Position numbers and translations under genes: made by a program
Assembly (NCBI GenBank): GCA_001804885.1
Contig: MHBM01000157.1
Coordinates: 16,629-80,628, forward strand
Length of the DNA stretch: 64,000 nt
Direction: 5' to 3'
Source: Lentisphaerae bacterium RIFOXYA12_FULL_48_11
GTDB taxonomy: Bacteria > Verrucomicrobiota > Kiritimatiellia > UBA8416 > YA12-FULL-48-11
The notes under the pieces: generated by a model
Seen by the model: only the letters and a program-made list of their open reading frames with translations
Told to the model about the DNA's origin: nothing
Database searches by the model: none
Part shown: one piece after another, positions 31,697-63,469 of the stretch
Layout: each line of letters starts with the position of its first letter
Numbering within the stretch: position 1 is the stretch's first letter

Positions 31697-32401
31697 ATGT
31701 ATCCCGAAACAGCCGATATTGAAACATCTTCAGCCGATTACGCAAAACGGTTCTCGGGCCCGGCCGGGGAATGGATGTTGAAGATCCAGGAACAAATTGT
31801 CACCGACTGGATGAAGTCGCTCCCCAACGCTACTATACTTGATGTCGGAGGAGGACACGGCCAGCTGGCTATTCCGTTTGCCCGGCTCGGTCATCCTGTA
31901 ACAGTACTCGGGAGCGATGCGACATGCGGACTCCGGCTCCAAAACGAGAAATATATTACTTTCAAAACAGGAAACGTCATTGATCTTCCCTTCCCTGACA
32001 AATCGTTTGATGCGGTCATGTGTATTCGGCTTATTCCACACTGTACCCGCTGGCCTGAACTCATTGGCCAGTTATGCAGGGTTGCGAGACAATTGGTTAT
32101 TGTTGATTACCCGACCATCCAAAGCATTAACGTCTTCTCATCTTCCATGTTTGGCCTGAAGAAAAAACTGGAAGGAAATACAAGGCCATTTACATTATTC
32201 AAGCATTCGGAAATCATGAACGAGTTCCAGAAGAATAACTTTGAGAAGGAAAGCTGTCGTGCTCAATTTTTCCTGCCAATGGTTCTGCACCGGAAGCTGA
32301 ATAGCCCTGCCCTGTCGTCCTGCCTTGAAGGTCTTTTCAGAATGACAGGCCTGACCGCTCTGTTTGGATCACCGGTTCTTCTCGAGATGAAACGACAATG
32401 A
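31697..32401 (+). CDS. class I SAM-dependent methyltransferase
   Basis: Motif I ILDVGGGHGQLAIPFA. An acidic post-I residue and motif II/III spacing fit Methyltransf_11/25. Confidence 0.7.
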   Translation: MYPETADIETSSADYAKRFSGPAGEWMLKIQEQIVTDWMKSLPNATILDVGGGHGQLAIPFARLGHPVTVLGSDATCGLRLQNEKYITFKTGNVIDLPFPDKSFDAVMCIRLIPHCTRWPELIGQLCRVARQLVIVDYPTIQSINVFSSSMFGLKKKLEGNTRPFTLFKHSEIMNEFQKNNFEKESCRAQFFLPMVLHRKLNSPALSSCLEGLFRMTGLTALFGSPVLLEMKRQ

Positions 32402-33417
32402 TGAATATTCCACATTCCAGCATTCCAAAGGGAGCAAGGATTTTAGTGACCGGCGCAACCGGTTTTACCGGCTCGCTCCTGACGCGAAAACTGGCGGAAA
32501 ACGGTGCAATAATCCACGCCATAGCCCGGTCCTCATCCAAGATTGAATCATTGCAAGACCTGAATATACGCTGGTTCAGAGGTGAAGTTTATGATCCGGC
32601 GACAGTGAAGACAGCAATGGAAGGCGTATCATACGTTTTCCATCTTGCAGCGGTTTATCGTGAAGCCAAAGCCGGCGAGGACATGAACCACAAGGTTCAT
32701 GTCGAGAGCACAAAGCTGCTCGCAGAAACAGCAAAGACGATCCCGTCCTTCCAGCGCTTCGTACATATATCTACAGTCGGTGTACACGGTCACATCGAAA
32801 ATCCACCGGCTGATGAAAATTACCCATTCAATCCCGGTGACATTTATCAAAAGACCAAGGCTGAAGCTGAATTATGGCTCAAGGAATATGCCAAGACAAC
32901 AGGGCTGCCATTTACCGTGATACGCCCAGCTGCCATTTATGGACCAGGCGACACACGACTTTTGAAAGTATTTAAGATGGCTGCATGGCCTGTCTTCCCG
33001 ATTCTTGGCAATGGCAAATGTCTCTATCACCTGATCCATGTTGATGACCTGACCAGCGTAATGATCCTGACCGCAACACACCCAGCCGCACTCAACGAGA
33101 CTTTCATATGCGGAAACCCTGACCCCATAAAACTTGAAGAAATTGGCCGCACCATTGCATCAGAATTGGGGATGAATACAAGGGTTATCAGGCTTCCTGC
33201 ATGGCCGTTCTTCGCGCTTGGCGCTGTCTGCGAAGCAGTCTGTAAACCGTTCGGCATCGAACCACCGATCTATCGCAGGCGCGTTGCATTTTTCACAAAA
33301 GATCGAGCTTTCAATACCAGTAAATTGCAGGAAAAACTTGGATATTCCTATAAGTATTCCAACAAGGAAGGATTAATCCAAACCGCCAGATGGTATGTCG
33401 AGAACGGCTGGCTTTAG
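32398..33417 (+). CDS. NAD-dependent epimerase/dehydratase (extended SDR)
   Basis: ILVTGATGFTGSLL is a TGxxGxxG Rossmann start, and the catalytic YxxxK is YQKTK. An ATGA overlap with the methyltransferase is present. Confidence 0.75.
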   Translation: MMNIPHSSIPKGARILVTGATGFTGSLLTRKLAENGAIIHAIARSSSKIESLQDLNIRWFRGEVYDPATVKTAMEGVSYVFHLAAVYREAKAGEDMNHKVHVESTKLLAETAKTIPSFQRFVHISTVGVHGHIENPPADENYPFNPGDIYQKTKAEAELWLKEYAKTTGLPFTVIRPAAIYGPGDTRLLKVFKMAAWPVFPILGNGKCLYHLIHVDDLTSVMILTATHPAALNETFICGNPDPIKLEEIGRTIASELGMNTRVIRLPAWPFFALGAVCEAVCKPFGIEPPIYRRRVAFFTKDRAFNTSKLQEKLGYSYKYSNKEGLIQTARWYVENGWL

Positions 33418-33436
33418 AGCCTTCCATAAGAAGGCT
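33414..33436. terminator. convergent-gene hairpin (agagccttc-cataa-gaaggctct)
   Basis: A perfect 9-bp stem with 5-nt loop overlaps the epimerase stop codon and lies just downstream of the convergent GT4 gene. Neither strand has a U-tract. Confidence 0.35.
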
Positions 33437-34600
33437 CTATCCGCGGGTAACAGATTCCATCAGCCTGCAGAATTCTGTAACTGTCTTCTCAAAAGCCTTT
33501 CCTGAATATTTCTCCAGCGCAACTCTTGCAGCTTTTTCAACAAGCTTATTACGCAGATCGGAATCAGATGCAAGACGAAGCATTCCATCAGCAAACCTTT
33601 CTGGTACTGCTGGCTCGAGCACGGCCATCTCATTGGAAAGAACCTGCGTATGCGATTCAATATCTGTCGCCAGTATGGGCTTCCCGGAATTGAGGTATGC
33701 ATAGATCTTCATGGGCGTATTGACACCTGTTATCCTTGGCGAAACCAATACATCTGCAACAGCTACAAATTCTCCTACCTCTTTCACAGGCTTTGGACCC
33801 AGGAAACGGACCATATCTTTAATTCCAAGAGTCGTGCACATATCCTGGTATTTCTTTACGTCAGGAGGCGTCCCACCTACCACGGCCAAGCTGATTTTGA
33901 CCCCCTTCTTAACTGCCAGGGCAAAGCTGTTTAAAAGGAGGTCTATTCCCTGGTATATCTCAAGATTTCCGATATACATGAAACATGTCCCAGCCAGGCC
34001 TAGCTGCTTTTTCTGCTCAGTTGAATTCACTTTGCCCTTGATAGAAAAAGCCGGCGGATCACGTAGAATTATAATCCGTCGCCCTTCACTTCTTTGCGCC
34101 ACTTTTGCAAGCGCATCACAAACCGGAACAACAACCGCGGCACGGCGAATAGCTTTGGATTCAAACCATCTCAGCAAAGGGAGAAGAAACGACAGAAATC
34201 GTTTTTTTTCGACAATTTGTTCCGGCATTGAAGAATCCATGTCATAGACATAAGGTATCCCGTAAATGTTTTTTATCATCTCGGCAATGAACACCGACTC
34301 CTCAACTGCATGGATGTACTGATAGTCCCCACTAACAGCCAACTTCAACGCCTTAAACAACAGCAAGACATCACAAACCAGTTTCTTGAAAGAAAAACCT
34401 GGCGGAATATTGGTAATCCAGGAAAGTGATGGAATGCGAATGATACGGACATTTTTGTACTCGACACCCAATCCTTCATGAAAAGTCAGAACATCCACAA
34501 ACCAACCCTGCCGAGACATAGCCTCGACAAGAGCCCTAACTGCAATGGGCGTACCCCTCTCGGTAAAAAACGGTTGCGGTGCCAACAAGAGAACTTTCAT
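33437..34600 (-). CDS. glycosyltransferase family 4 (GT-B, retaining)
   Basis: The start MKVLLLAPQPFFTERGTPIA is typical of GT4. The C-terminal half has the EX7E-like region (SPRITGVNTPMKIYAYLNSGKPILAT). Confidence 0.7.
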   Translation of the reverse strand: MKVLLLAPQPFFTERGTPIAVRALVEAMSRQGWFVDVLTFHEGLGVEYKNVRIIRIPSLSWITNIPPGFSFKKLVCDVLLLFKALKLAVSGDYQYIHAVEESVFIAEMIKNIYGIPYVYDMDSSMPEQIVEKKRFLSFLLPLLRWFESKAIRRAAVVVPVCDALAKVAQRSEGRRIIILRDPPAFSIKGKVNSTEQKKQLGLAGTCFMYIGNLEIYQGIDLLLNSFALAVKKGVKISLAVVGGTPPDVKKYQDMCTTLGIKDMVRFLGPKPVKEVGEFVAVADVLVSPRITGVNTPMKIYAYLNSGKPILATDIESHTQVLSNEMAVLEPAVPERFADGMLRLASDSDLRNKLVEKAARVALEKYSGKAFEKTVTEFCRLMESVTRG

Positions 34601-34866
34601 ATAATTCCGTGTTTTTACTCCATAAAGAGAGGCTATTCAATCCGAAAAGGGGCTTTCTAAAATTAGCCAAAAAAGCATGTATTCATCCACTGGACAATAG
34701 CACGTCTGCAACGGTTTGTATGCGAGCCGGGAGGACAAAAACCCCGGGAATTGATGTATCCGCAATAGCGCCTCGAACCACAGCTGAATCCTGCTATTTC
34801 TCAGCCAAATCCGATTTGGGTAACACGCCCAGCCCCACCCATCCTAAACGTTAAGGTAACCATGTG

Positions 34867-35132
34867 CTATTTTTGAGCGGAAACCTGAAGTGCTGTTCCG
34901 TCACAGGAGACAATAATATGACCATCGGTATTGGTGACGTACACTTTTGCACCGACCGGTTCATAAAAACGCTTGATTCGTTCAGGGATTCCTTTGGCCC
35001 AGGGTAAATCTGACAGGCAGGCAATTGCAATCTTCGGACGGGTCAGAGCCGCTTCTTCCTGAATGGTATAGATTCCGTTTTACCCGCCAAACACTTTGCA
35101 TGAAAATCTCGATCAATAGTACAACGCGCCAT
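34867..35132 (-). pseudogene. small ORF broken by a frameshift at an A-run (candidate pseudogene or sequencing error)
   Basis: The minus-strand ATG at 35132 gives MARCTIDRDFHAKCLAGKTE.., which stops after 29 codons. A 70-codon frame with no start (NGIYTIQEEAALTRPKIAIACLSDLPWAKGIPERIKRFYEPVGAKVYVTNTDGHIIVSCDGTALQVSAQK*) continues from the same point. The two frames meet at gggtaaaacgg. Confidence 0.4.
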
Positions 35133-35329
35133 TACCTGCTCATTATTACTTTTTTTCCAGTGAAGCTTCCCGCGGCAAGCCGCGGGCATTTTGGCGAAGG
35201 CGAGTAAACTTGTTTAAATTCCCATGCTTCTCCAATAATTCGATCTTTTAAACAACCGTCAAGAAACTGCTGGTTTTTGCATATTGTGACTGGTAGATTT
35301 CTGCACCATGTAATTGCGGATTTGAGAAT

Positions 35330-35803
35330 ATGGCTGACACTTTAAATAATAATGAAAAGGCTGAATCGGTATGGCCGTGTAGTAAAGAAACTATACTAAC
35401 GACCTTACCCGCCAATATGCCACATTCAGCACCAAAACGGGCATTTACCCAATTTGCCATCGCTTTGATCATTGCAGCACTGTTCTATTTTCTATTCAAG
35501 AAACCGGTTATGGCAGCAATTGTGACCGGGATATCCACAGTAGTTCTGATATGCGGTCTTTTCATCCCACCAGCCTTCCTGGCAATCGAGAAATTCGGAT
35601 TGAAACTGGGTGAATGGGTAGCAACAAGTCTGACATGGATCCTGCTCGTACCGTTTTTCTACATCTGTTTTGTACCGGGGCGGATTATCATAAGCCTTGC
35701 CGGCAAGGATCCGCTCAATCTGAAGTTTTCGTCTACAGCAAAGACATACTGGGTACCACGTATTCCTGTAAATGATATTGCACGATACGGAAAACAGCAT
35801 TGA
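35330..35803 (+). CDS. small polytopic membrane protein, SxtJ-like (carbamoyltransferase-associated)
   Basis: 3-4 predicted transmembrane helices. The stop overlaps the carbamoyltransferase start (ATGA at 35800). The true start may be internal (MPHSAPKRAF). Confidence 0.45.
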   Translation: MADTLNNNEKAESVWPCSKETILTTLPANMPHSAPKRAFTQFAIALIIAALFYFLFKKPVMAAIVTGISTVVLICGLFIPPAFLAIEKFGLKLGEWVATSLTWILLVPFFYICFVPGRIIISLAGKDPLNLKFSSTAKTYWVPRIPVNDIARYGKQH

Positions 35804-37629
35804 TGAATATTCTAGGCATAAGCGCTTTTTATCATGATTCCGCCGCCGCGTTAATCCGCGATGGAAAGATCATCGCCGCAGCACAGGAAGAAAGGTTTTC
35901 CCGCAAGAAACACGATGAGCGATTCCCCATCAACGCAATCAAGTATTGCCTCGCAGAAGGCGGAATCGGAAAAGGACAACTGGACGCCATAGCTTTCTAC
36001 GACAAGCCCGTAACCAAGTTCGCTCGAATTCTTGAAACATACTTCAGCGTGGCCCCTAAGGGTTTGAATTCTTTCATGATGGCCCTGCCCATATGGCTGA
36101 AACAAAAGCTCTGGATTCCAATGGAAATAGAAATCGCCATGGAACAGTGCGGAATGGACACCCCAAAGATCTATTTCCCTGAACATCACGAATCACACGC
36201 GGCCAGCGCTTTTTATCCATCTCCATTTCAAAGCGCTGCAGTCCTGACGATAGATGGTGTCGGTGAGTGGGCAACCAGTACACTTGGCCGTGGCGACGGA
36301 AACAAACTGGAAATAATCAGCGACCTCCGATTCCCACACTCGCTCGGACTCCTCTACTCCGCGTTCACTTATTTCACTGGATTCAGAGTTAATTCCGGCG
36401 AGTACAAGCTTATGGGCCTGGCCCCATACGGCGAGCCCAGGTACGTTGACCTGATATACAAGAATCTGATCGATGTAAAGGAAGACGGCTCATTGGCGCT
36501 GAACATGAAATACTTCGGGTACCTTGACGGTTTGACAATGACCAATGACAAGTTTGCCGAACTATTCGGGGGTCCGGCCCGGAAATCGGAGAGCGAGATC
36601 ACCCAGCGTGAAATGGATATTGCCCGCTCGATACAAGTGGTGACAGAGGAAATAGTCCTCAAGATGGCAAAACACCTCCAAACTATAACAGGCGAAAAGA
36701 ACCTCTGCATGGCTGGCGGCGTTGCCCTAAATTGTGTGGCGAACGGAAGATTGCTACGCGAAGGACCTTTTGAAAACATCTGGATCCAGCCTGCGGCAGG
36801 TGACGCAGGCGGGGCACTTGGTGCAGCAATGCTCGTATGGCACCTGGTCAACAAGGGTGAACGGAACGCCGACGGCGTGCATGACTCCATGCAAGGCGCC
36901 TACCTTGGCCCGGAATTTAAGGATGATGATATAGAAGCATACCTGAAAAGCAAAGGGTATCCGGCCAAAAATCTTGTCGGCGACGAATGGGCAAAAACTT
37001 TAGCCAAAATTATAGACGAACAAAATGTTATCGGTCTTGTTCACGGCAGAATGGAATTTGGACCGCGCGCACTGGGAAACCGCTCCATAGTCGGCGATGC
37101 GCGCTCCACCAAAATGCAGTCAATCATGAATCTCAAGATCAAGTACCGCGAATCGTTCCGGCCGTTTGCGCCATCCTGCCTGGTCGAAAAAGTAGACAAA
37201 TTCTTCGAACTCGATACCCCATCGCCTTACATGCTCTTAGTCGCGCCCGTCAGGAAAGAACGGTGTCTCGGCCAGGAAAACATGACAAAGATTCCAATCC
37301 GGGAACGGATAAACCAGGCACGATCCGATGTTCCGGCAATCACGCATGTTGATTATTCCGCCCGAGTACAGACCGTAGATCGATCGACCAATCCACGCTA
37401 CTACGATCTGATAAAGGCCTTCGAAGACAGGACAGGCTACGGAATCATTATTAACACTTCTTTCAACGTTCGTGGTGAGCCTATCGTAGGCTCACCTGAA
37501 GACGCCTATCGCTGTTTCATGCGTACAGAAATGGACTACCTGGTCCTCGGCTCTTTCCTCTTGAACAAGAAAGAACAGCCACCATGGGCCGAGCAAGCAA
37601 ACTGGCGCCTGGACTACGTGTTAGATTGA
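35800..37629 (+). CDS. carbamoyltransferase, NodU/CmcH family
   Basis: N-terminus MNILGISAFYHDSAAALIRDGKIIAAAQEERFSRKKHD matches the family signature. The Kae1/YgjD-like and C-terminal carbamoyl-phosphate domains give a consistent 609-aa length. Confidence 0.88.
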   Translation: MMNILGISAFYHDSAAALIRDGKIIAAAQEERFSRKKHDERFPINAIKYCLAEGGIGKGQLDAIAFYDKPVTKFARILETYFSVAPKGLNSFMMALPIWLKQKLWIPMEIEIAMEQCGMDTPKIYFPEHHESHAASAFYPSPFQSAAVLTIDGVGEWATSTLGRGDGNKLEIISDLRFPHSLGLLYSAFTYFTGFRVNSGEYKLMGLAPYGEPRYVDLIYKNLIDVKEDGSLALNMKYFGYLDGLTMTNDKFAELFGGPARKSESEITQREMDIARSIQVVTEEIVLKMAKHLQTITGEKNLCMAGGVALNCVANGRLLREGPFENIWIQPAAGDAGGALGAAMLVWHLVNKGERNADGVHDSMQGAYLGPEFKDDDIEAYLKSKGYPAKNLVGDEWAKTLAKIIDEQNVIGLVHGRMEFGPRALGNRSIVGDARSTKMQSIMNLKIKYRESFRPFAPSCLVEKVDKFFELDTPSPYMLLVAPVRKERCLGQENMTKIPIRERINQARSDVPAITHVDYSARVQTVDRSTNPRYYDLIKAFEDRTGYGIIINTSFNVRGEPIVGSPEDAYRCFMRTEMDYLVLGSFLLNKKEQPPWAEQANWRLDYVLD

Positions 37630-37707
37630 AATAACAGTACTTTCTCCCTGCAAACTTCCAATTTTGAGACAGGTTCTAATTGCAAAGGCATTAACCATAG
37701 CCAAAGA

Positions 37708-37789
37708 CGGCTCGCGGGTACGCTCGCCCTCCCAAATCACACCAAACACTGATCTTTCTCCAGGGAGGGCGAGCGTACCCGCGAGCCGT
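37708..37789. repeat. perfect 26-bp inverted repeat with 30-nt spacer (cggctcgcgggtacgctcgccctccc ... gggagggcgagcgtacccgcgagccg)
   Basis: Read directly from the sequence. It lies in the 320-bp spacer between the carbamoyltransferase and the downstream small ORF. Further short palindromes follow: agcgcc-a-ggcgct at 37811-37823 and gccac...gtggc. Confidence 0.85.
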
Positions 37790-37949
37790 TCATGGCCAGT
37801 CTTCCTCGTCAGCGCCAGGCGCTAAACGGCCACTTGGTTAAAATGCCGACGTGGCATGACGAGCCGCCAAATGATTATTGTTTAGTTGCAAAGGGATGTT
37901 CTCTTTACTAGTTTATTCCCGAATTTATCACTGCTCAGGAGATGGCACG

Positions 37950-38114
37950 ATGAGATTTTTAAGACATTTAGGGAATCTGCTCAAGGAATTCGGCGGATTT
38001 GCGTGGCACCACAAGGCGTGGTGGATCATACCAGTAGTTCTCACCCTGCTCCTGCTTGGGCTGTTGATAACCGTGGGGCAGTCATCGGCACCGTTCATTT
38101 ACACCCTGTTCTAA
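37950..38114 (+). CDS. small membrane protein, DUF5989/SxtK-like
   Basis: An AGGAGA site precedes ATG 37950. The 54-aa product MRFLRHLGNLLKEFGGFAWHHKAWWIIPVVLTLLLLGLLITVGQSSAPFIYTLF has one transmembrane helix and the conserved APFIYTLF tail. It sits next to a carbamoyltransferase. Confidence 0.55.
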   Translation: MRFLRHLGNLLKEFGGFAWHHKAWWIIPVVLTLLLLGLLITVGQSSAPFIYTLF

Positions 38115-38142: not shown

Positions 38143-40338
38143 TTACAGCAACTTTTTGTACTTTATCCTGAACGACGATTTACCGTGAGGTTTCACACCT
38201 ATGAATTTGACATCTTTCCCGGCATCAAATGGGTAGATCTCCACCGGTTCTTTTGCAGTCAGACCGTCCTGCCAGACATATCGAAGGACAGCCTCTTCCA
38301 GAGGATCATCAAGAACGACGGCCAATTCATTGATTCCGCCCTTGACCTTTCCTCCGCCTTTAACAAATTGATTCATATCCCTATTCACCCTGAATATCGT
38401 TCGCGTGGGTATCCCGGGGAATGATTTCACTACCTTGTAATGTTCATTATTCAGCAAAAGAAATGTTTTCCACTGATCATGGCAAGCAATAACAAAGCTC
38501 ACATTAAAAAGATTGATATAATCAAACAATGACTTTTCATTACCCTGCACAGGTTCAACAGGATAATTAAACTGATCAGAAAACATCATCTCCCGTCTAA
38601 CAAGCATTGGAAACGGATTAACGCACACACCTCCATCCTGGTGCACGGCAGAGCCGACAAATAGCATTCTACTGCCATCAGAAGTATATTTCCCCATCCA
38701 TTCGGCAACCTGATCAACATCAGGATTCATTAGAGTATATTTCGACGGTCCTTTATTTCCATAAATCAGTGATATATTTATCGCACACATTAACAGAATA
38801 GAAATCACCATTGCCCGAACCAGAAGCATTCGAGGGGCAACATCTTCCAGCCATTTCTCCATCCACAGGGAGGCCGGTATTACTGCGACAAAGAAAAGGG
38901 GTATAGATGCATGCGACAACTGAAGATACTGACTGCCGAGATCACCACATCCCGCAAGGAGACCTAACCCTGCCATGGTGGCACCAAATACAGCCATCAT
39001 TCCCTTTTTTGGAAGAAACCACACACCAATAACGCCAAGGAAAATAAGGCAGGGATTCGCCTGCCTCAGTTGTTCCAATAAGCGACCCAATCCGGCAGAA
39101 AGTAAACCTGCGAGTTCCATTCCCCCTGCACTGCGCATTACAAAATCCATTGACTCAATCCTGCCCAAAACACCCATTATAAACGGCAGGCAAATTGCAA
39201 TTATGGAGACCACACATAACAGCAGAAAGCTTACCCGCCTCAACGACAACTGTTGCGCGCTGAAAACAACGACCAGCGGAAGCAGGATCACAATTACGGC
39301 CGAAGGCGGCCAGGCAAGCAGCATTACAAGCGCGAACACCAGCATTATTCCGGTAGAATTTGCAAAACAATCCAGCCAGAGAACACGATAAAGACATGCA
39401 ACAGCCAGCATGACAAACGGCAATGCAAAACATGCCCCGGCATTCCCGGCGACAAAAAACAAATGAAAGAAATACTGGCTGACGCCAAGGGCGAGAATCG
39501 CTGCACAGCCCGCCGCAGACCAGCCACCGCCTACGAGCCGCGCAGACAAACCAGCAAGGAAAGGAACAACTATAATAAATGAGCATGCCAGCACGGGCGT
39601 ATACATCAAATCTGTCTGGAACAGTTTCCACAGGGGCAGGAAAATCGTACCCAGGGGAATAATCCCAGTGGAAACAAGCGAAGGCGTCTCCGCACCTGCA
39701 TTCCACAAAGGATCGTAAAATATTAGCCTCGGAAATGTCTGTGCATAAATCCACAGACGATAAAGACAATTGGCATGATCATTGCCGTAAAGCGCATGCC
39801 CTCCCGTTGCCTGCCATAACTGGTTGAAAGCAGTAATTTGTGTCCAGATAAGTATTCCAAACACAATGACCCAGGCACTGATTTTCGACCTGCAACATGA
39901 AAGGACAGGCACCAATAGTGCGGCTAAAGCACAGAAAAGAAACAAACCCAGCCCATAAAGCTGGCGACCGGAAATCCACTGAAGAAAATAAAACCAAGGA
40001 TCGCTTACGGAACCGGAAACAAGATAAAAAACAAGCCCTGCCAACAAGGACCAGGCCATAACCTGGCGGTATTCGACCGGCATCTCCTGTTTATCTCCAC
40101 CAGCAGCACCAGTCCGGTGTAACAACCACAGAAAGATGACCAGGAATGAAATAACTGGCGGAACGAGCATCCACAAATGCTCAACATGAACCAATGATGA
40201 CCCTTGGGGCAGAAGAATAACAATCAAAAGGCATTCAAGGACGATTGCCCAACCACCGGCGAACCATACCCGCCAGTTACTGACATCTACCCTTGGGATA
40301 TCATTCTGATCAGCCATGCCGGGAAAATACCAGATCAC
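38143..40338 (-). CDS. large polytopic membrane protein, putative GT-C-fold glycosyltransferase/polymerase
   Basis: About 470 aa hold 10 or more transmembrane helices, followed by a ~260-aa soluble C-terminal domain. No diagnostic motif was read. Confidence 0.35.
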   Translation of the reverse strand: MIWYFPGMADQNDIPRVDVSNWRVWFAGGWAIVLECLLIVILLPQGSSLVHVEHLWMLVPPVISFLVIFLWLLHRTGAAGGDKQEMPVEYRQVMAWSLLAGLVFYLVSGSVSDPWFYFLQWISGRQLYGLGLFLFCALAALLVPVLSCCRSKISAWVIVFGILIWTQITAFNQLWQATGGHALYGNDHANCLYRLWIYAQTFPRLIFYDPLWNAGAETPSLVSTGIIPLGTIFLPLWKLFQTDLMYTPVLACSFIIVVPFLAGLSARLVGGGWSAAGCAAILALGVSQYFFHLFFVAGNAGACFALPFVMLAVACLYRVLWLDCFANSTGIMLVFALVMLLAWPPSAVIVILLPLVVVFSAQQLSLRRVSFLLLCVVSIIAICLPFIMGVLGRIESMDFVMRSAGGMELAGLLSAGLGRLLEQLRQANPCLIFLGVIGVWFLPKKGMMAVFGATMAGLGLLAGCGDLGSQYLQLSHASIPLFFVAVIPASLWMEKWLEDVAPRMLLVRAMVISILLMCAINISLIYGNKGPSKYTLMNPDVDQVAEWMGKYTSDGSRMLFVGSAVHQDGGVCVNPFPMLVRREMMFSDQFNYPVEPVQGNEKSLFDYINLFNVSFVIACHDQWKTFLLLNNEHYKVVKSFPGIPTRTIFRVNRDMNQFVKGGGKVKGGINELAVVLDDPLEEAVLRYVWQDGLTAKEPVEIYPFDAGKDVKFIGVKPHGKSSFRIKYKKLL

Positions 40339-40388
40339 CGGGAATTGAAAAGAGCCAAGTCTTGCCCTGTAGGCTAAATTTCATTCTA

Positions 40389-53722: not shown

Positions 53723-53800
53723 TTTTATCAGCGATTTATATAATTACTTTGCCTGCCATCTTAAAATGGAATAAATTCTCAAGAGTCTTATAAAAACACT

Positions 53801-57043: not shown

Positions 57044-57502
57044 CTATTTCGACATGGGACGGTAATTTCGCAGGAAAAGCATTTCTGAAAAAAGAAATTT
57101 GAGAATGGCGAATATGAAGACATTAATTAACTGAACTAGAACATATTTCTGAAAACCGATGACTTCAACGATAAAATAGTAGAGACCCCAGTCGGCAACC
57201 CTGAACATCATTATCCCCGAAAAAAAGGCGCCGAATTCAGCCCATAGCGATTTTGCATCTTTTCGATTGAATGCAAAATAACGGCAGACAAAGAAATTCA
57301 CAGTGACCTGAAAGGTAATAACCAGCGCGTATGCAACCCCCTTATCGATTGCAACCTTCTCAACCAGAAATATATTGAGAGGAATAGCGATCAGAAACGA
57401 CGGAAGCCCGGATACGGCAAATTTAAAGAGAGAGACAAAACGCGCCCTGTCAATTTTGCCGACAAACGGGAGGGATATGGGAGTTCTATCTAAGTCAGTC
57501 AT
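57044..57502 (-). CDS. GtrA-family membrane protein (polyprenyl-phosphate sugar translocase-like)
   Basis: 152 aa with 4 transmembrane helices. FKFAVSGLPSFLIAIPLNIFL...VNFFVCRYFAF fits the GtrA consensus. Confidence 0.7.
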   Translation of the reverse strand: MTDLDRTPISLPFVGKIDRARFVSLFKFAVSGLPSFLIAIPLNIFLVEKVAIDKGVAYALVITFQVTVNFFVCRYFAFNRKDAKSLWAEFGAFFSGIMMFRVADWGLYYFIVEVIGFQKYVLVQLINVFIFAILKFLFSEMLFLRNYRPMSK

Positions 57503-58847
57503 TTACAGACTCCTGCTCCATCAGCAACGTTCCGAGCCCTTTGCGCTTAACCGGCTTGCTAAAACGCTTCCAAGTCAATCTGAGTTTGTCAAACATAGGG
57601 CCCATGAATGACTCCGGCAGACATTCTAGCATTTTCCTGGCCAGCCTGGTTCCACAAACCAGGAATATCGATGAGATCACCACTTCCACAAGATATCGCG
57701 ATACCGGCAATGGAACGGGACGAACGCCATAGCGCGGCGCTTTCTTCCCGAACGCCCGTCGCCAACGGTTTCTAATGTATCCTCCACGCTTTTTAAAATC
57801 GAGCATGTGGCCATGCATTTCCAATGTTTTAAATGGATCCTCTTCTGTCATCACCAGCAGAGATGCTTTCTCCATGGCAGAGATGATTGATTCCATTTCG
57901 GCCGAGCGGGTTGTAATCACAGAATATCCGCCTCCAAGCTTTTCAAATCGTGGTGACCAGGCATCACCCACAGACAGATCGCAGAATTCATTCGTGAAGT
58001 CCATATTCTGCAGACTGTTTCGGGTTATGAAGAAGGGGATCAGAAAGTTGTAATAAACTTTCTTTGACTGGAGAACTCTCCCTGAAGCCATCCTGATTTC
58101 CATATAACCAGGCCACTCGCCTGCACGCCATTTGAGAGAAACAACCTTGTCGTCAGGTTTTACGCCACAACCACGCAGGTAAGATTCAATTGCAGCAGGA
58201 TAAAGTGCAGTGCCTGTATAGGGACCAAACACATATTTGATCTGTTTTGCCGGCTCATAATCGTTTTGCTGAAGCAAGCGCAAGGCAGCTGCCTGATCCG
58301 GCAGGCAGGTGATGGCATAGCGCTCACCAGGTGTTAGAGCACGAAAAATATCCAGCGTGGATACTGGAATGTATATTGATTGTGCAGCATCGAGTATTTC
58401 TCGACTGGTGCGGACAATCTTAGCGCGCGCCAATAATGGTTCAGGTGTTCCCTGTTGAACAATTATTGCCGCATCGATGAGTTTATTTTCCAGCAGGTAA
58501 ACAAGTGTATGACTTATTACACCACCCGATGCCCCGCCGCGGCGGATTTCAGGAATTGACGAATAACCGGTACGTACCTTTTGAAAGCAACCCAGCAACC
58601 AGTTCTCAGGCAGATGACCATAATGTGTGTTGTAGAGTTTTATGAAGTCATAGCCTTTACCAGGACAGGTTTCCCATGCGAGATCAGGTAAATCGCAAGA
58701 CAGAGTCTCAAAGGATGGACATGGCCCCCAGGGTGTATCCCGCATAACGGCCTTACAGGATTGATCGAGCGCCACACAGGCACCGCAACCCGTACAAATT
58801 CCGGCCTCAATTACATCATTCTGCAGTCTTTCACATACTGTCGGCAT
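57495..58847 (-). CDS. coenzyme F420 hydrogenase/dehydrogenase beta-subunit-like Fe-S flavoprotein (FrhB/FdhB family)
   Basis: N-terminal 4Fe-4S cysteines (CTGCGACVALDQSC), then a FrhB-like N/C-terminal domain arrangement. In polysaccharide loci this family usually accompanies pyruvyl transferases. Confidence 0.5.
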   Translation of the reverse strand: MPTVCERLQNDVIEAGICTGCGACVALDQSCKAVMRDTPWGPCPSFETLSCDLPDLAWETCPGKGYDFIKLYNTHYGHLPENWLLGCFQKVRTGYSSIPEIRRGGASGGVISHTLVYLLENKLIDAAIIVQQGTPEPLLARAKIVRTSREILDAAQSIYIPVSTLDIFRALTPGERYAITCLPDQAAALRLLQQNDYEPAKQIKYVFGPYTGTALYPAAIESYLRGCGVKPDDKVVSLKWRAGEWPGYMEIRMASGRVLQSKKVYYNFLIPFFITRNSLQNMDFTNEFCDLSVGDAWSPRFEKLGGGYSVITTRSAEMESIISAMEKASLLVMTEEDPFKTLEMHGHMLDFKKRGGYIRNRWRRAFGKKAPRYGVRPVPLPVSRYLVEVVISSIFLVCGTRLARKMLECLPESFMGPMFDKLRLTWKRFSKPVKRKGLGTLLMEQESVND

Positions 58848-58867: not shown

Positions 58868-59746
58868 TTACAGCATGCGATTAAAACAATCCAACCCCAC
58901 CACCGGCAGGGATTCCCTGCGCAAGCTCAGCGCATCGGTCTCAAGATTACCAAAAACAAATCCTTTACTGCGTAACACAGCCACATACCTTCTCAAGGTT
59001 ACAAGCCCTCCCATAATCGAACCTGCCTGATAAACAAGACGCATAATAAAGGGAAGACTATTCATTGCTGGATAATACGGGAAAAGATTATGAAAATGCA
59101 AATCCGTGACATGGAACGCCTTATCATCTCCGGACAAACTTGACACCTGCCGCTTAACCAGAAACGCACTCAACTCCGAACCGAGCAGATTTATAAATGT
59201 CATACCAGCAGGCAAAGTGGCAGTCAACATGCCAAGCGGTATTTCAACAAGATTCGTCCCCTGCCATTGGAATGGCGATTTCGGCAGTCCGGAAAAATCA
59301 TAGCAATGTGATCGGCGCATCGGAAAGATACTCGCATCATAACAGAACCCAAGTTTGTCCATTAGAAGAACATCATCACGGCTGACGATTCCGAGGGCAG
59401 CTCGGTATCCATCCGGTTTTCTACCAACTCGCTTTTCAAAAGCTTCCATTCCCTTTTGTATTTCATCGGCATGACTTGCATGCATTGTGCCGAATGTATC
59501 AGGAGAATGGCTGAAACCATGCACACCGAGAGATATGCCTGCCCGAAGAAATGTATCAATAATAGAATGGCCTTGCTGAAAGAGCTTACCAACAACAAAA
59601 GCTGTCAGAGGTATATTTTCAGCATGCAACCAATCAATAAACGGAGCGGCCTGGCTGAGAATCTCATAAGAATCGGACCGACCATAGTCGGATTCGATGT
59701 CTAGCGTAAGATAAAGCGTTTCACTTCTTCTTGGATCAGAGTCCAT
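58868..59746 (-). CDS. NodB-type polysaccharide deacetylase family protein (variant motif 1; DUF3473/PEP-CTERM-locus-like)
   Basis: LTLDIESDYG occupies the position of TFDDG. HGFSHS (H-x-x-x-H) and RKPDG (R-x-P-x-G) are present. Confidence 0.55.
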   Translation of the reverse strand: MDSDPRRSETLYLTLDIESDYGRSDSYEILSQAAPFIDWLHAENIPLTAFVVGKLFQQGHSIIDTFLRAGISLGVHGFSHSPDTFGTMHASHADEIQKGMEAFEKRVGRKPDGYRAALGIVSRDDVLLMDKLGFCYDASIFPMRRSHCYDFSGLPKSPFQWQGTNLVEIPLGMLTATLPAGMTFINLLGSELSAFLVKRQVSSLSGDDKAFHVTDLHFHNLFPYYPAMNSLPFIMRLVYQAGSIMGGLVTLRRYVAVLRSKGFVFGNLETDALSLRRESLPVVGLDCFNRML

Positions 59747-59755
59747 GATTGATTG

Positions 59756-60493
59756 TTATTGCCTGACACAGACAAAAAACTGCCGGATACCCAGCTCAGT
59801 GAGCCATGGACAAGAAAAATATTTCAAGACCTTCTCGCCCAATTGTCGAACACACCTTGGCCCGCACGGGATCAGCATTGTTCCCTCATGTTTAAGCAAT
59901 TTCCATCCTGTCGCAGCCAGCCAAGATTTAACTTCGCTGGATTTTGGGAACCTATGCGGACCTTCCCCATGCCCGCCAAATACGGCTGTATAAAATCGAT
60001 AACTCCATTCACAGCTGGCTGGAGGACAACTGAGAACCATTCGACCACCAGGAACACTGACACGGTAAAGTTCTTTCAGAAACCCAAGAGGTGATGCGGC
60101 ATGTTCCAGAGTTTCCAAAGTAAGAATCCTGTCGAATGAACCGGAATCAAACGGAAGTTTATCGTACTGTTCAATCTTGCAAATCTGCGCGTCCGGATGA
60201 ATTTTCCGCGCCACCGAGATCAGCCCGCTGGATATTTCAGCATGTGTAACATTAAGGGAAGAACATGTCCTCAACAGAAACGAATGAGCTCCGCAATCAC
60301 GGGAAGAAATATTCAGAACCCGGCAACCGGGAAAGAGCTGCAACTCCGGCATCGACCAGACAAACCGCTGATCATGAGTATCGGAAACGCCGGAATTGGC
60401 ATCCACATAGATCGATGCAACGCTGTCCCAATGACGGGCTACATCCGCGTCAGTCCACGGATGCTCAGGATACCCGCTAGACTGAGCCATCAT
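59756..60493 (-). CDS. class I SAM-dependent methyltransferase
   Basis: The motif I region is GCRVLNISSRDCG, and the post-II/III region is RILTLETLEHAASPLGFLKELYRVSVPGGRMVLSCP. Confidence 0.55.
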   Translation of the reverse strand: MMAQSSGYPEHPWTDADVARHWDSVASIYVDANSGVSDTHDQRFVWSMPELQLFPGCRVLNISSRDCGAHSFLLRTCSSLNVTHAEISSGLISVARKIHPDAQICKIEQYDKLPFDSGSFDRILTLETLEHAASPLGFLKELYRVSVPGGRMVLSCPPASCEWSYRFYTAVFGGHGEGPHRFPKSSEVKSWLAATGWKLLKHEGTMLIPCGPRCVRQLGEKVLKYFSCPWLTELGIRQFFVCVRQ

Positions 60494-61364
60494 CCCTCTC
60501 CCTGAGGTTCAACATGGAGATCTGATCGGCAAGCAGACCAAAGAAAAAGAGGAACATAGCCATTACCAATATTGTTACGGCGCCATTTGAAACACGGGAC
60601 GCTATCCACATATCAAAAAATGCTATAATCGCTCCACACAAACCGGCAATAATACTTGCAGGAAGAAATATCTTAAGTGGATTAAAAAGCATTATAATAC
60701 GCATCAGCAACATAAGCGTTTTAATACCGTCTTTGAGCGGACGAACATTGCTTACCCTGCCTACCCTGGCCTTAACTTTGATCGGAACAGTTCCGATAGA
60801 ATAACCCTCTTTAAGAAAGGCCAAGGTAGAAGTTGTACTAAAAGAGAAACCGTTAGGCATAAGATGCAACAACGAACGCATTATTCTTCTGTCAAACCCC
60901 CTGAATCCGGAATTGTAATCAGGCAACCTCTGTTCCACAAGATATTCACCGACAACCCTTATGATCCATTTTCCAAACTTTCGGTTGGCAACCTGGAATG
61001 AATCAATAGTCCGTTCTCCTATGACCATGGGATTATCAGATAGATTTCTGGCGATTTCTTCAATTGCCCCCGAAGTGTGCTGGCCATCACCGTCCATAAT
61101 GATGATATTCTTTGCCCTGGCATGTCGTATGCCAGTCTTAAGGGATGCCCCATAGCCCTTGTTCACAGAATGACGTAAAAGAGTAACAGGATATTTTCTT
61201 ATAACAGAAACTGTAGCATCCTTAGATCCATCATCTACAACAATAATTTCAGAGCCTTTAAGAAAGTCATTCCCGGAAAGATCCTCAAGGGTATCGCCAA
61301 TCCCTTGCTCCTCGTTGTAGACAGGAATAACAATAGCCAGGCTTGTATTTACACTTTTCTCCAT
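60477..61364 (-). CDS. GT2 polyprenyl-phosphate glycosyltransferase (GtrB/DPM1-like, C-terminal TM anchors)
   Basis: LAIVIPVYNEE...IIVVDDGSKDAT with DXD (IMDGDGQ) is GT2. Two C-terminal transmembrane helices follow, as in GtrB. Confidence 0.8.
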   Translation of the reverse strand: MEKSVNTSLAIVIPVYNEEQGIGDTLEDLSGNDFLKGSEIIVVDDGSKDATVSVIRKYPVTLLRHSVNKGYGASLKTGIRHARAKNIIIMDGDGQHTSGAIEEIARNLSDNPMVIGERTIDSFQVANRKFGKWIIRVVGEYLVEQRLPDYNSGFRGFDRRIMRSLLHLMPNGFSFSTTSTLAFLKEGYSIGTVPIKVKARVGRVSNVRPLKDGIKTLMLLMRIIMLFNPLKIFLPASIIAGLCGAIIAFFDMWIASRVSNGAVTILVMAMFLFFFGLLADQISMLNLRERDDGSV

Positions 61365-61379
61365 AATCAGATCATTATG

Positions 61380-62072
61380 TCAGAAAGTGAATTTTGCACC
61401 AACGCCAAACGCCAGATGACTCATCGTAAAGATGATATCTTCATCACTGTTAACTGGATGCGTATAAACCCCGTCAACGTCAGAATCAACATATCGTCCA
61501 TATACATTTACGGAAAACTGCTCCATAATCTGCCAGTCACACCCAAGCGCAAGATAGAATCCCTGCGTATTATCGAGAACGAAATCCTTGCCCGGCATAC
61601 TCCAACCTGAAGCTGCGTCAAAATCAGCCGAGTAAAAAGCAGCGCCCAATTCACAGAAAGGTGTAAACTTTGTTGAATTGGGATAACACCCAAGAAGATA
61701 TAACAATGGACCGGAGAGCACCGTTGTACCATCCGTGCCGCCATGATCCCATGCTTCTGCGCCAACACGGTCATAGCTCAATCCGATCCCTAAACATGGC
61801 ATAAACTTGTACTGGACATAGAACTTAGTTGGCAAATAATCCTGGTCTTCTTTTAACATGGTGATCGAACCTACAAACGAACCGTTATATGGCTCACCCC
61901 TTGAGTCCTCAAGCAAAACAACATGAGTAATTCTGGTTCCTATTTCGAGTTTATTGGCGATATATGAATTGTAAAAATCATTATCAGCCAATTGAGCCCT
62001 CACTGAGACATCAAAGCCTGAACTCAGCACGACAGACACAAATAATGCTACAAGACCAGACCTTCTTCTCAT
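61380..62072 (-). CDS. putative outer-membrane beta-barrel protein
   Basis: A signal peptide, alternating hydrophobic beta-strand pattern and a C-terminal aromatic residue (FGVGAKFTF) fit an outer-membrane beta-barrel. Confidence 0.45.
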   Translation of the reverse strand: MRRRSGLVALFVSVVLSSGFDVSVRAQLADNDFYNSYIANKLEIGTRITHVVLLEDSRGEPYNGSFVGSITMLKEDQDYLPTKFYVQYKFMPCLGIGLSYDRVGAEAWDHGGTDGTTVLSGPLLYLLGCYPNSTKFTPFCELGAAFYSADFDAASGWSMPGKDFVLDNTQGFYLALGCDWQIMEQFSVNVYGRYVDSDVDGVYTHPVNSDEDIIFTMSHLAFGVGAKFTF

Positions 62073-62090
62073 GACTTTATCTTCCCCTCT

Positions 62091-62726
62091 CTATTTACTG
62101 ATTTTTCCAGAAACTTCGCCCTTGCTTTCAGATTCTGTTTGCTGTTTATCCAGCGCTTTCTCCATCTGCAGCAGACGTGCCTCAAGAGTGGCAACACGCT
62201 GTGCAATCTTCGCCTGCTTTGACTGCATCGCAGACATTGCAATCGAAAAATGAAATGCAACCATCACCAGGAAAGTGAATGATACAGCAGCAATAGCTGT
62301 GGCATATTCCATACCGGTAACAGCCCTGAACAAGGCCACTGCATCAGGAAAAAGAACAGAAATCAATATGACCAGGCCTGTAACCACCCACAACAGCGCA
62401 TATTTCTCCTGCAAATGGGTACGCCTGATTGATTCAAATGTGACATAAAGAACCAGCAGACTGATAAACCCCATTATAACCCTGATACGAACCTGATACT
62501 CTGTCGAAACAACAAGCTCGACGACTTTCTGGGGAATACTTGCAAATATAACGAGAACAAGCCCAGCAAGAAACCAGAGTATCCCGGTAATAATACTGCA
62601 ATCCTTCTTCCATGTACCTCTGCCTGCAAAAAACAGAATCAGAAAGCCAATAAGGCCAATACATACGCGCTGGAACACGGCGTGTTCCCAACCAACGGCA
62701 TATCGCATTGCCAAAGGATCAATCAT
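62091..62726 (-). CDS. DUF2304-like small membrane protein with C-terminal coiled coil
   Basis: 4 transmembrane helices, then QRVATLEARLLQMEKALDKQQTE. It sits between two GT2 genes, as DUF2304 proteins typically do. Confidence 0.4.
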   Translation of the reverse strand: MIDPLAMRYAVGWEHAVFQRVCIGLIGFLILFFAGRGTWKKDCSIITGILWFLAGLVLVIFASIPQKVVELVVSTEYQVRIRVIMGFISLLVLYVTFESIRRTHLQEKYALLWVVTGLVILISVLFPDAVALFRAVTGMEYATAIAAVSFTFLVMVAFHFSIAMSAMQSKQAKIAQRVATLEARLLQMEKALDKQQTESESKGEVSGKISK

Positions 62727-63469
62727 ATTTTACCTGCAACGTTTTCACGCGAATAACGCACATCAACCGGCCTGGCCCTGTCTACAAGCAAAGCCAGAAA
62801 CACTTTCAATACATAGTATAATGTACCCCATTTACCTATCGTCGACTTTCCCGCCGTGCGCTCCCTGAATGTCGCAGGAATTTCGCAGAAATCATAACCC
62901 TCTCGTCGCATCAGGGCCAACGCCTCAGGTTCAGGATAATCCATGGGATACATACGGGAGAAGAAATACAGAAGAGGTCGATTCAGAATCTGGAAACCTG
63001 ATGTTGGATCAGTAACTTTCCGTCTGCAGATAAAAGACAGGAATGCCGCGAGTCCATGAATACCACAATAACGAATCCATGTACTTTTGTAGCCACCCTC
63101 TTCGAGAAATCTGGATCCAAGAACAAGATCCACGTTACCGGCTTTCATAGCTGCAACCAGATTCTTCATTTCCGATGGAGAATGCTGACCATCTCCATCA
63201 CATCGGATGGCATACTCGTAGCCATTCTCATAAGCATAGAGAAAACCAGCCTGTACAGCCCCGCCAACACCAAGGTTACATGGCAAATCAAGGACTTCTG
63301 CTCCATTCTCACGGGCAACATCAGCCGTTCTGTCTGCAGATCCATCATTTATCACCACAATATCAACGCCTGGAAGAAAATTATGAATTTCACCAAGAAG
63401 CGAGGCTATGCTTGCCTCCTCGTTATAGGCAGGAATCAAAATTACAGTATCTGACCTTCGATTCTTCAT
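62723..63469 (-). CDS. GT2 glycosyltransferase (soluble DPM1-like)
   Basis: VILIPAYNEEASI...VVINDGSADRTADVA with DXD (RCDGDGQ). It has no transmembrane tail. ATGA overlap with downstream gene. Confidence 0.8.
   Translation of the reverse strand: MKNRRSDTVILIPAYNEEASIASLLGEIHNFLPGVDIVVINDGSADRTADVARENGAEVLDLPCNLGVGGAVQAGFLYAYENGYEYAIRCDGDGQHSPSEMKNLVAAMKAGNVDLVLGSRFLEEGGYKSTWIRYCGIHGLAAFLSFICRRKVTDPTSGFQILNRPLLYFFSRMYPMDYPEPEALALMRREGYDFCEIPATFRERTAGKSTIGKWGTLYYVLKVFLALLVDRARPVDVRYSRENVAGKI

Follow-up and report, generated by a model that had tools for sequence, protein, structure and literature searches.

Background

What do four very large membrane proteins do in a single bacterial glycan locus? 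The question is raised by positions 31697-63469 of a stretch of 64,000 nucleotides from Lentisphaerae bacterium RIFOXYA12_FULL_48_11 (contig MHBM01000157.1; the whole stretch is hereafter called the window), where proteins of 731, 851, 927 and 662 amino acids (aa), here named BIG1, BIG2, BIG3 and BIG4, are encoded among genes for glycosyltransferases (GTs), a flippase and sugar-modifying enzymes. A preliminary description of this DNA proposed that they are GT-C-type enzymes, which decorate a glycan after its export with sugars delivered on polyprenyl phosphate.

How lipid-phosphate sugars serve in glycosylation outside the cytoplasm is known in detail only for the O-antigens of enterobacteria, for a few Firmicutes and for mycobacteria. 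The Kiritimatiellia and Lentisphaerota are abundant degraders of sulfated polysaccharides, and our literature search found nothing on glycan biosynthesis in Kiritimatiella or on the DUF6541 and DUF6044 families.

The best explanation that we can offer is that an uncultured bacterium of the Kiritimatiellia type (Planctomycetes-Verrucomicrobia-Chlamydiae, PVC, group) makes a surface polysaccharide with this island, in which GT4 chemistry in the cytoplasm is combined with several transfers by GT-Cs, from polyprenyl-phosphate sugars, on the periplasmic face of the membrane, and substituents are added to the product. We give this explanation as a whole a probability of about two in three.

The four large proteins are GT-C glycosyltransferases

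According to hydropathy and AlphaFold models, each of the BIG proteins comprises a polytopic N-terminal half followed by ~200-500 aa of soluble C-terminal sequence. All four are glycosyltransferases of the GT-C fold or family, BIG1 and BIG2 by predicted structure and BIG3 and BIG4 by sequence. Their GT-C candidacy thus withstood the fold and family comparisons (PMT_2, hhalign, Foldseek). The gene boundaries and the large C-terminal parts reported earlier are correct as well, but the 10-12 helices ascribed to all four proteins are too few for BIG1.

The most direct assignment is that of BIG3 (46943-49726, plus strand), which matches the Pfam families PMT_2 (E 2.8e-11; 44.3 bits against a cut-off of 26.1) and PMT (6.7e-7), and whose family profile, built from 42 relatives, reaches the solved structure of yeast Pmt1 (6p25_A) with an E-value of 0.0015. 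BIG4 (53801-55789, plus strand), taken alone, matches Pfam solely by its C-terminal discoidin domain (F5_F8_type_C, residues 531-653, E 4e-9), the one already noticed at the end of one large protein. However, PMT_2 is matched by 5 of the 46 members of the BIG4 family, and the family profiles of BIG4 and BIG3 align in hhalign over the first ~210 positions with 96% probability (E 4.9e-9), in such a way that D36-E37 of BIG4 falls on D43-E44 of BIG3.

These affiliations could also mean that BIG3 and BIG4 are protein O-glycosyltransferases, which act on secreted or envelope proteins in the manner of the actinobacterial PMT/Ppm1 and have no part in polysaccharide synthesis. The matches of BIG3 to both PMT_2 and PMT, the reach of its profile to Pmt1 and the presence of GT2 candidates for making a polyprenyl-phosphate sugar donor would all fit such a role. 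On the other hand, PMT_2 also takes in ArnT-like lipid and glycan transferases, the C-terminus of BIG4 is a glycan-binding discoidin domain, and both genes are found amid GT4, Wzx and deacetylase genes, here as well as in relatives. Neither a PEP-CTERM protein nor any other candidate substrate was seen in the window: the earlier suggestion of a PEP-CTERM/glycoprotein-type substrate found no support, as no open reading frame (ORF) of the window has a PEP-CTERM-like C-terminus, and the only related match is a deacetylase that scores 57 bits against the 276-bit cut-off of an XrtA-system model. We consider protein O-glycosylation very unlikely.

BIG1 (38143-40338, minus strand) and BIG2 (42257-44812, minus strand) match neither Pfam nor NCBIfam, nor do they have any relative of solved structure that is detectable by sequence. 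In a comparison of the BIG1, BIG2 and BIG4 family profiles with all sequences of the PDB, nothing was found for the membrane domains, and only weak matches of the carbohydrate-binding module (CBM) or discoidin type appeared in the C-terminal parts; structure prediction was therefore needed. The YfhO family (PF09586) was considered and rejected, as it is matched by none of the four proteins, nor by any of 48 BIG2 relatives and 46 BIG4 relatives; one BIG2 homologue carries the NCBI name "YfhO family protein" and nothing more. DUF6541 is weakly matched (2.7e-6) by two BIG2 relatives.

The AlphaFold model of BIG1, calculated from the family alignment, is of good confidence (predicted local distance difference test, pLDDT, 83.5; predicted TM-score, pTM, 0.86). 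When it was compared with the PDB by Foldseek, the top 20 matches were all GT-C enzymes (AglB/STT3, PglB, DPY19, AftD, ArnT) with E-values from 3e-6 to 6e-4, after which the values jump to above 0.19. The model has about 16 helices, of which 4-5, judged from the model itself and from a weak alignment with BIG2, would be additional ones placed ahead of the acidic loop discussed below. The BIG2 model (pLDDT 91.4, pTM 0.89) exhibits about 11-12 helices and finds AftD first (7.6e-12), followed by DPY19, STT3, EmbA/B, AftA, PglB and ArnT. In both models alpha/beta and beta-sandwich domains come after the membrane module, and the two C-terminal beta-sandwiches of BIG2 match CBM-type domains. Transporters or other fold classes gave no significant match in the PDB to either membrane domain. 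The TM-scores are modest (0.3-0.55), as expected between different GT-C families. BIG1 and BIG2 themselves align weakly in hhalign (E 0.004, probability 8%) around a common DH..LY.LW motif, which is suggestive of a common family without being proof of it.

An acidic motif in the first loop had been ascribed to two of the proteins. In fact, a conserved acidic residue occurs there in all four families: D187 in 15 of the 17 BIG1 sequences (followed by H188 in 17/17), D55 in 48/48 BIG2 sequences (E82 is equally invariant), D43 in 42/42 BIG3 sequences (together with D79 and D168) and the pair D36-E37 in 46/46 BIG4 sequences. The position of the loop, after the first helix of the module, was taken from the models and alignments. 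We propose these residues as candidates for catalysis.

The structural matches bear on a different reading of the locus, in which one or more of the GT-Cs would act as polymerase, ligase or oligosaccharyltransferase: an oligosaccharide flipped by Wzx would pass en bloc from polyprenyl diphosphate onto a growing chain, a lipid or a protein, and the role of Wzy or WaaL would thereby be filled. The best structural matches of BIG1 are the oligosaccharyltransferases AglB and STT3; the window contains a flippase of the MOP/Wzx type, yet no ORF tested matches a Wzy_C, O-antigen polymerase or ligase model of Pfam or NCBIfam; Wzx is encoded in one plus-strand unit (46943-55789) with a GT4 and two GT-Cs; and the homologues of BIG2 occur in Wzx-type and Wzt (ABC)-type loci alike, a ligase-like pattern. 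However, the WWDxG motif of STT3, AglB and PglB was found in none of the four proteins (WWD is absent from all of them, and none matches the STT3 family of Pfam), and the Foldseek ranking does not discriminate, for AftD, ArnT and DPY19 score in the same range. Moreover, two candidate synthases of lipid-monophosphate sugars and GtrA need GT-C consumers, and a Wzy or WaaL protein may simply be encoded outside the window. We therefore hold en bloc transfer to be unlikely, and prefer transfer of single sugars from polyprenyl phosphate.

Proposed synthesis and flipping of the sugar donors

The locus contains candidate parts for the supply of such donors, namely two GT2 enzymes, one of them with a DUF2304 partner, a GtrA protein and a MOP flippase. 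Both GT2s find their best NCBIfam matches among polyprenyl- and dolichyl-phosphate sugar synthases (PpgS, AglJ, dolichyl-phosphate hexose transferase, ArnC).

The soluble GT2 (62723-63469, minus strand; Pfam Glycos_transf_2 7e-23) is of the GacI/PpgS-like kind and a candidate polyprenyl-phosphate-N-acetylhexosamine synthase. It matches the PpgS model (NF058614) with 3e-27 and 95.4 bits against an equivalog cut-off of 370, which makes it a relative of PpgS and not PpgS itself. Its gene overlaps by 4 bp that of a membrane protein of the DUF2304 (GacJ/Rv3632) family (62091-62726, minus strand; 2.4e-19, 70 bits against a cut-off of 25.5), and the GT2-DUF2304 pairing has been kept in L003, L089 and L090 (related loci are cited here by such numbers).

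The second GT2 (60477-61364, minus strand; Glycos_transf_2 1e-28) carries two C-terminal transmembrane (TM) helices (residues ~216-279), an architecture known from GtrB, AglJ and ArnC, and may be a polyprenyl-phosphate-hexose synthase. Its best NCBIfam match is AglJ (4e-33, over the full length, residues 10-286 of 293), then PpgS (5e-21). The two-helix tail agrees with the earlier designation as GtrB-like, but all NCBIfam scores are below the equivalog cut-offs.

Two proteins may carry the lipid-linked sugars across the membrane. One is a small GtrA-family protein (57044-57502, minus strand; Pfam GtrA_DPMS_TM, PF04138, 1.5e-8, 35.3 bits against a cut-off of 26.1), a candidate flippase of polyprenyl-phosphate sugars, encoded on the same strand four genes downstream of the TM-tailed GT2, with a methyltransferase, a deacetylase without signal peptide and an FrhB-like protein in between. 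The other is a flippase of lipid-linked sugars of the MOP family, Wzx/MurJ type (52208-53722, plus strand; Polysacc_synt 1e-17, MurJ 3e-17), with ~12-14 hydrophobic segments.

Between the genes of the two lipid-sugar synthases lies one for a small outer-membrane beta-barrel protein of 230 aa (61380-62072, minus strand), which has a signal-peptide-like N-terminus and a C-terminal KFTF, and matches Omp85, OmpA_membrane and OMP_b-brl weakly, always below the gathering cut-offs; homologues occur in 15 of the 82 loci with BIG2.

A fifth candidate at the window edge

The right border of the locus is the edge of the window, where a related gene runs off (63634-64000, minus strand). Its C-terminal 121 codons, in a frame that stays open to the end of the window, are homologous (E 5.7e-56) to a 782-aa protein of L003, which exhibits ~12-13 hydrophobic segments and a soluble C-terminal domain of ~290 aa. 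The family has no match in Pfam or among PDB sequences, and its profile, even with a three-sequence alignment, aligns with that of the PMT_2 family with only 29-36% probability in hhalign; the protein is a possible fifth GT-C. In L003 (17031-19379), L089 (551-2878) and L090 (3914-6259) the gene for the 782-aa protein is located directly upstream of the GT2 and DUF2304 genes, so that the order of the triad is common to four contigs including the window. In L090 the triad stands alone beside a glycogen phosphorylase gene. Taken together, the three genes look like a self-contained GT-C/GT2/DUF2304 module. Pfam matches none of the genes that precede the 782-aa homologue in L090, and these therefore give no indication of what lies past the window edge.

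Layout of the island and its recurrence in relatives

Positions 31697-63469 hold 25 back-to-back ORFs, all of them glycan-related in the Pfam and NCBIfam scans and with no unrelated insertion among them (0/25), plus one small gene at 37950-38114. The inventory drawn up earlier (three GT4, two GT2, GtrA, a Wzx flippase, an epimerase and modifying enzymes) was recovered by these scans, and the gene list is complete apart from the small gene, which had been missed, and the truncation of the locus at the window edge. The left border at ~31.7 kb is real, since upstream of it lie genes for glycan degradation (glycoside hydrolases, a sulfatase) together with the last part of a cell-division cluster and two unrelated genes. 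Base composition is even along the window.

The genes are tightly packed, with intergenic gaps above 300 bp only at 34601-35329 and at 37630-37949 (between the carbamoyltransferase and DUF5989 genes), and yet they do not form a single operon, as their alternating orientation divides them into at least eight transcription units. One plus-strand unit (46943-55789) comprises BIG3, a CE4 (carbohydrate esterase family 4) deacetylase, a GT4, the MOP/Wzx flippase and BIG4. A minus-strand run of ten genes leads from the truncated 782-aa-family gene through the GT2, DUF2304, the small barrel, the TM-tailed GT2, a methyltransferase, a CE4 deacetylase, the FrhB-like Fe-S protein and GtrA to an SGNH/AlgX-like protein. 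The four complete GT-C genes occupy four units other than this one. A scan for promoter and terminator consensus sequences returned promoter-like sites at the level of chance (27 found, 29.3 expected), and was therefore not used for defining operons.

The longest gap, 34601-35329, comprises 730 bp with no convincing ORF between the divergent GT4 and carbamoyltransferase units, and has a counterpart of just ~270 bp in L001. A scan of the whole window against Rfam gave no match, and the gap is thus free of known RNA families.

Homologues of the locus proteins all come from metagenome genomes assigned to Kiritimatiellia, Lentisphaerota/Victivallales or "Verrucomicrobiota", in agreement with the PVC assignment in the preliminary description; the closest genome representative is 67% identical. 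On one contig of the Joint Genome Institute (JGI), at 61-69% protein identity, BIG1-BIG4 are found together with the same accessory genes, i.e. GT4s, Wzx, deacetylases, YdjM, GDSL, the hexapeptide acetyltransferase and the carbamoyltransferase with DUF5989. By far the commonest family is BIG2, with 335 protein homologues and 277 genome loci, while BIG1 is rare (16 homologues found). Comparison with related genomes was made over 82 non-redundant loci, and for the neighbours of BIG2 over 77 loci. Clusters with at least two of these GT-Cs recur in 23 of the 82, often with the genes adjacent on one strand, and a candidate lipid-sugar synthase (GT2 or UbiA) is also present in 17 of the 82. The commonest neighbour of BIG2 homologues is a GT4 (37/77), and both Wzx-type and Wzt (ABC)-type export genes occur near them.

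The layout could be explained in another way, namely that the 32 kb are a hotspot of independent glycan-modification cassettes that serve different envelope polymers and do not make up one pathway, with the carbamoyltransferase and DUF5989, the GT2-DUF2304-GT-C module and the PMT_2 operon as candidate cassettes. The eight or more units in alternating orientation speak for it, as do the wide variation of BIG2 neighbourhoods and the solitary occurrence of sub-modules elsewhere (carbamoyltransferase, DUF5989, GT2 and BIG4 as a separate set in L086; 782-aa protein, GT2 and DUF2304 in L090), and also the syntenic relative, where the GT-C genes do not have the donor operon beside them. Against independent cassettes speak the tight packing, the fact that 25 out of 25 genes are glycan-related, and the relative in which BIG1-BIG4 and the accessory genes have stayed together at just 61-69% protein identity. 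We treat the hotspot as a minor possibility, albeit one to be taken seriously.

Further observations concern the relatives themselves. UbiA-family prenyltransferase-like genes lie beside BIG1, BIG2 or BIG4 homologues in L087 (450-1391) and L088 (13488-14414), and also in L056 and L077; they recall the synthases that make polyprenyl-phosphoribose in three-component systems for pentofuranose. Ten non-redundant loci have genes of the LPG_synthase_TM (MprF flippase-like) type. Members of the BIG2 family form tandem duplicates on one strand in L012, L015, L024, L025 and L052, and some genomes have BIG2 copies on two separate contigs (e.g. L008 and L061).

Relation to known systems

In the biosynthesis of the group A carbohydrate of Streptococcus pyogenes, the GacI/GacJ pair makes GlcNAc-P-undecaprenol, the small DUF2304 protein stimulating undecaprenyl-phosphate-HexNAc (N-acetylhexosamine) synthesis, a Wzx-family protein is the proposed flippase and the GT-C enzyme GacL transfers the sugar to polyrhamnose; the mycobacterial pair PpgS/Rv3632 behaves in the same way as GacI/GacJ (bioRxiv 10.1101/180810). 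Our locus resembles the GacI/GacJ/GacK/GacL system in the soluble GT2 beside a DUF2304 membrane protein, in the MOP/Wzx-family protein that may flip undecaprenyl-phosphate sugars, and in polytopic GT-Cs that are hard to assign by sequence family and would transfer sugars outside the cytoplasm. It differs in that there are four or five GT-Cs and two GT2s in place of one GT-C and one donor, in the Gram-negative PVC host, and in the backbone, which is ABC-exported polyrhamnose in S. pyogenes and appears Wzx/GT4-based here. BIG1-BIG4 also lack any detectable relation to GacL in sequence, although no direct comparison was made.

The Gtr systems for glucosylation of the O-antigen in Shigella and Salmonella phages share with the locus a GtrA protein, a GT2 with two C-terminal helices (GtrB) and a GT-C (GtrC). 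The Gtr-type three-component modules of the preliminary description exist, however, as a parts list of GT2s, GtrA and GT-Cs and not as a contiguous gtrABC operon: GtrA and the GT2 are three genes apart with no GT-C in that stretch, and only the 782-aa-family candidate at the edge heads the minus-strand run. Besides, there is no phage context, and several GT-Cs are present, each with a large C-terminal domain.

The cell-wall systems of mycobacteria are a further parallel. Their Emb/Aft arabinofuranosyltransferases are multiple GT-Cs that draw on common lipid-phosphate donors and carry carbohydrate-binding modules at the C-terminus, and AftD is the best structural match of BIG2 (7.6e-12); PpgS/Rv3632/Rv3779, which add galactosamine to arabinogalactan, include the GT2-DUF2304 pair, the PpgS model being the best match of the soluble GT2. 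The UbiA-family genes next to BIG1 and BIG2 homologues in some relatives recall the decaprenyl-phosphoribose route; the window contains none. The locus differs in the score of its GT2, about 95 bits where the equivalog cut-off is 370, and in the unrelated phylum and envelope.

Finally, the GT136 pentofuranose systems combine GT-Cs that carry C-terminal CBMs with MOP/MATE flippases of undecaprenyl-phosphate sugars, and GT136 itself was founded as a new GT-C family from a previously unclassified protein (Kelly et al. 2024, PMC11127046). Our proposal follows this concept, in which a synthase makes the lipid-phosphate sugar, a flippase of the MOP/MATE type moves it, and a GT-C transfers it while its C-terminal CBM binds to glycan not yet modified (PMC11127046), but the donors are made there by UbiA-type phosphoribosyltransferases and here by GT2s, and one GT-C is replaced by several. 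The order of a TM-tailed GT2, a CE4 deacetylase and a small flippase-like protein recalls ArnC/ArnD/ArnE-F/ArnT, which modify lipid A with aminoarabinose, and suggests by analogy that a sugar may be tailored while on its lipid carrier. This is an analogy of logic and not membership, as the ArnC model scores 44 bits against a cut-off of 529, the deacetylases do not match the ArnD model, and there are no ArnA/ArnB genes.

The principle is therefore already known from the Gtr, Gac, Arn, GT136 and mycobacterial Emb/Aft systems, and the locus is an extension of it. What is new is the number of GT-Cs in one locus, the two or three GT-C families that lie outside current sequence models, and the recurrence of such clusters in a poorly studied PVC lineage.

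A proposed pathway

In the pathway that we propose, three GT4 enzymes and the epimerase would build a lipid-linked glycan on the cytoplasmic face of the membrane, and the MOP/Wzx protein would carry it across. In parallel, the two GT2s may load single sugars onto polyprenyl phosphate, the soluble one together with the DUF2304 protein and the other by means of its two-helix C-terminal anchor. A first tailoring of these sugars might fall to the methyltransferase and the CE4 deacetylase without signal peptide whose genes lie between those of GT2 and GtrA, before the lipid-monophosphate forms are flipped by GtrA, the MOP protein or both. On the periplasmic face, the four GT-Cs (five with the edge gene) would then transfer the sugars to the glycan, each with the help of the conserved acidic residue of the first extracytoplasmic loop, and hold the acceptor glycan by the C-terminal beta-sandwich or discoidin domain. 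The remaining enzymes would add carbamoyl, acetyl and methyl groups, and de-N-acetylation may also take place. In this scheme the identity of donors and acceptor, the roles of the flippases, the sequence of events and the choice between decoration and extension for each GT-C are inferred; decoration after export is the form that we favour, and periplasmic assembly of the main chain or en bloc transfer by one of the GT-Cs are less likely alternatives.

Several findings weigh against this explanation. The GT2s match their models far below the equivalog cut-offs throughout, and the genes of GtrA and the GT2s are outside the transcription units of the four GT-Cs; over the 45 kb read in the closest syntenic relative, the GT-C genes have no donor operon as a neighbour. 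The GT-C status of BIG4 comes from sequence profiles only, where that of BIG3 comes from a direct Pfam match, and TM-scores of 0.3-0.55 are of no help in telling enzymes with polyprenyl-monophosphate donors from enzymes with diphosphate-linked oligosaccharides as donors. No initiating phosphoglycosyltransferase, Wzy, Wzz or outer-membrane exporter was found in the window by Pfam or NCBIfam, and the backbone pathway is thus incomplete here.

Other genes of the island and its surroundings

The modifying set, in addition to the enzymes of the GT and donor-supply modules, comprises two S-adenosylmethionine (SAM)-dependent methyltransferases, a NodU-type carbamoyltransferase, a WcaF-like acetyltransferase, two SGNH/GDSL proteins and two CE4 deacetylases. 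The island begins on the plus strand with one of the methyltransferases (31697-32401; Methyltransf_11/25, E 1e-11), overlapped by 4 bp by an NAD-dependent sugar epimerase/dehydratase (32398-33417; Epimerase, E 8e-35). Three GT4 enzymes, of the cytoplasmic Leloir type, are encoded at 33437-34600 (minus strand; Glycos_transf_1 and Glyco_transf_4), 44824-46011 (minus strand; Glycos_transf_1 5e-33) and 50970-52211 (plus strand; Glycos_transf_1 1e-34).

A plus-strand trio at 35330-38114 consists of a small membrane protein with no Pfam match (35330-35803), the carbamoyltransferase of the NodU/CmcH type (35800-37629; Carbam_trans_N 1e-102, Carbam_trans_C 7e-71; NCBIfam NodU 2e-46, below cut-off) and the 54-aa DUF5989 membrane protein missed before (37950-38114; 6.9e-18, 64.9 bits against a cut-off of 27). 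The trio is conserved in L001 (18062-20583) and L086 (4597-6982), with the small protein (127-157 aa) directly upstream of the carbamoyltransferase and DUF5989 in the same position, and accompanies GT-C genes in distant relatives.

Between BIG1 and BIG2, on the plus strand, lie genes for a YdjM-family membrane protein (40293-40973; YdjM 1e-15), whose true start is probably later and whose 180-aa homologue adjoins the BIG1 homologue in L001, and for a membrane-anchored SGNH/GDSL protein (40970-42256; Lipase_GDSL_2 4e-8) with 3-4 N-terminal hydrophobic segments, a candidate O-acyl transferase or esterase; in L001 its homologue is the convergent neighbour of the BIG2 homologue. A hexapeptide-repeat protein, putatively a WcaF-like O-acetyltransferase (46068-46805, minus strand; Hexapep 4e-14; NCBIfam WcaF family 5e-28, below cut-off), precedes BIG3. 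The first CE4 deacetylase (49831-50973, plus strand; Polysacc_deac_1 2e-10; NCBIfam PgaB N-terminal domain 6e-19, below cut-off) has no signal peptide, its N-terminus not being hydrophobic, and also comes after the PMT_2 gene in L001 and L083.

In the minus-strand run, the SGNH/AlgX-like protein (55767-56927; ALGX 1e-6, Lipase_GDSL_2 5e-5) has one N-terminal TM segment and may be a periplasmic O-acetyl transferase or esterase. The FrhB/FdhB-like Fe-S flavoprotein (57495-58847; FrhB_FdhB_N 5e-18, FrhB_FdhB_C 3e-19) is encoded between GtrA and a deacetylase, and its homologue in L003 (790-2187) adjoins a BIG1 homologue; L003 also has a pyruvyl transferase, which the window lacks. The second CE4 deacetylase (58868-59746; Polysacc_deac_1 4.5e-11), the one matched by the XrtA-system model, has neither signal peptide nor TM segment, and adjoins the second SAM-dependent methyltransferase (59756-60493; Methyltransf_11 2e-12).

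Outside the island, positions 1-20000 of the window hold a polysaccharide-degradation block typical of Kiritimatiellota, with an alpha-galactosidase, GH141-like beta-helix proteins with CBM, a 3-keto-disaccharide hydrolase, a sulfatase, esterases and a GH42-like protein. A MurC-MurB fusion of 803 aa (25741-28152, minus strand) ends the Ddl-FtsQ-FtsA-FtsZ cluster just upstream of the island. At 28264-29892 (plus strand) a protein joins a domain of the uroporphyrinogen-decarboxylase family (URO-D) to a thioredoxin-like one at the C-terminus, and a CobW GTPase gene comes after it; this unusual fusion is unrelated to the glycan locus.

Conclusions

The locus supplies three or four GT-C sequence families from a barely studied phylum, along with candidates for their catalytic residues and donor synthases, and the enzymes could be useful for glyco-engineering. 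A bolder and quite doubtful idea would be that Kiritimatiellia and Lentisphaerota build, and not just decorate, a major envelope glycan outside the cytoplasm by a relay of GT-Cs fed by polyprenyl-phosphate sugars, an independent Gram-negative counterpart of mycobacterial arabinan and mannan assembly, in which BIG2 would be the lineage-wide core enzyme and BIG1, BIG2 and the 782-aa family would represent new GT-C (CAZy) families. Since clusters of several GT-Cs recur across the Kiritimatiellia and Lentisphaerota, the chemistry of the envelope or capsule in these bacteria may lean unusually heavily on periplasmic glycosylation.

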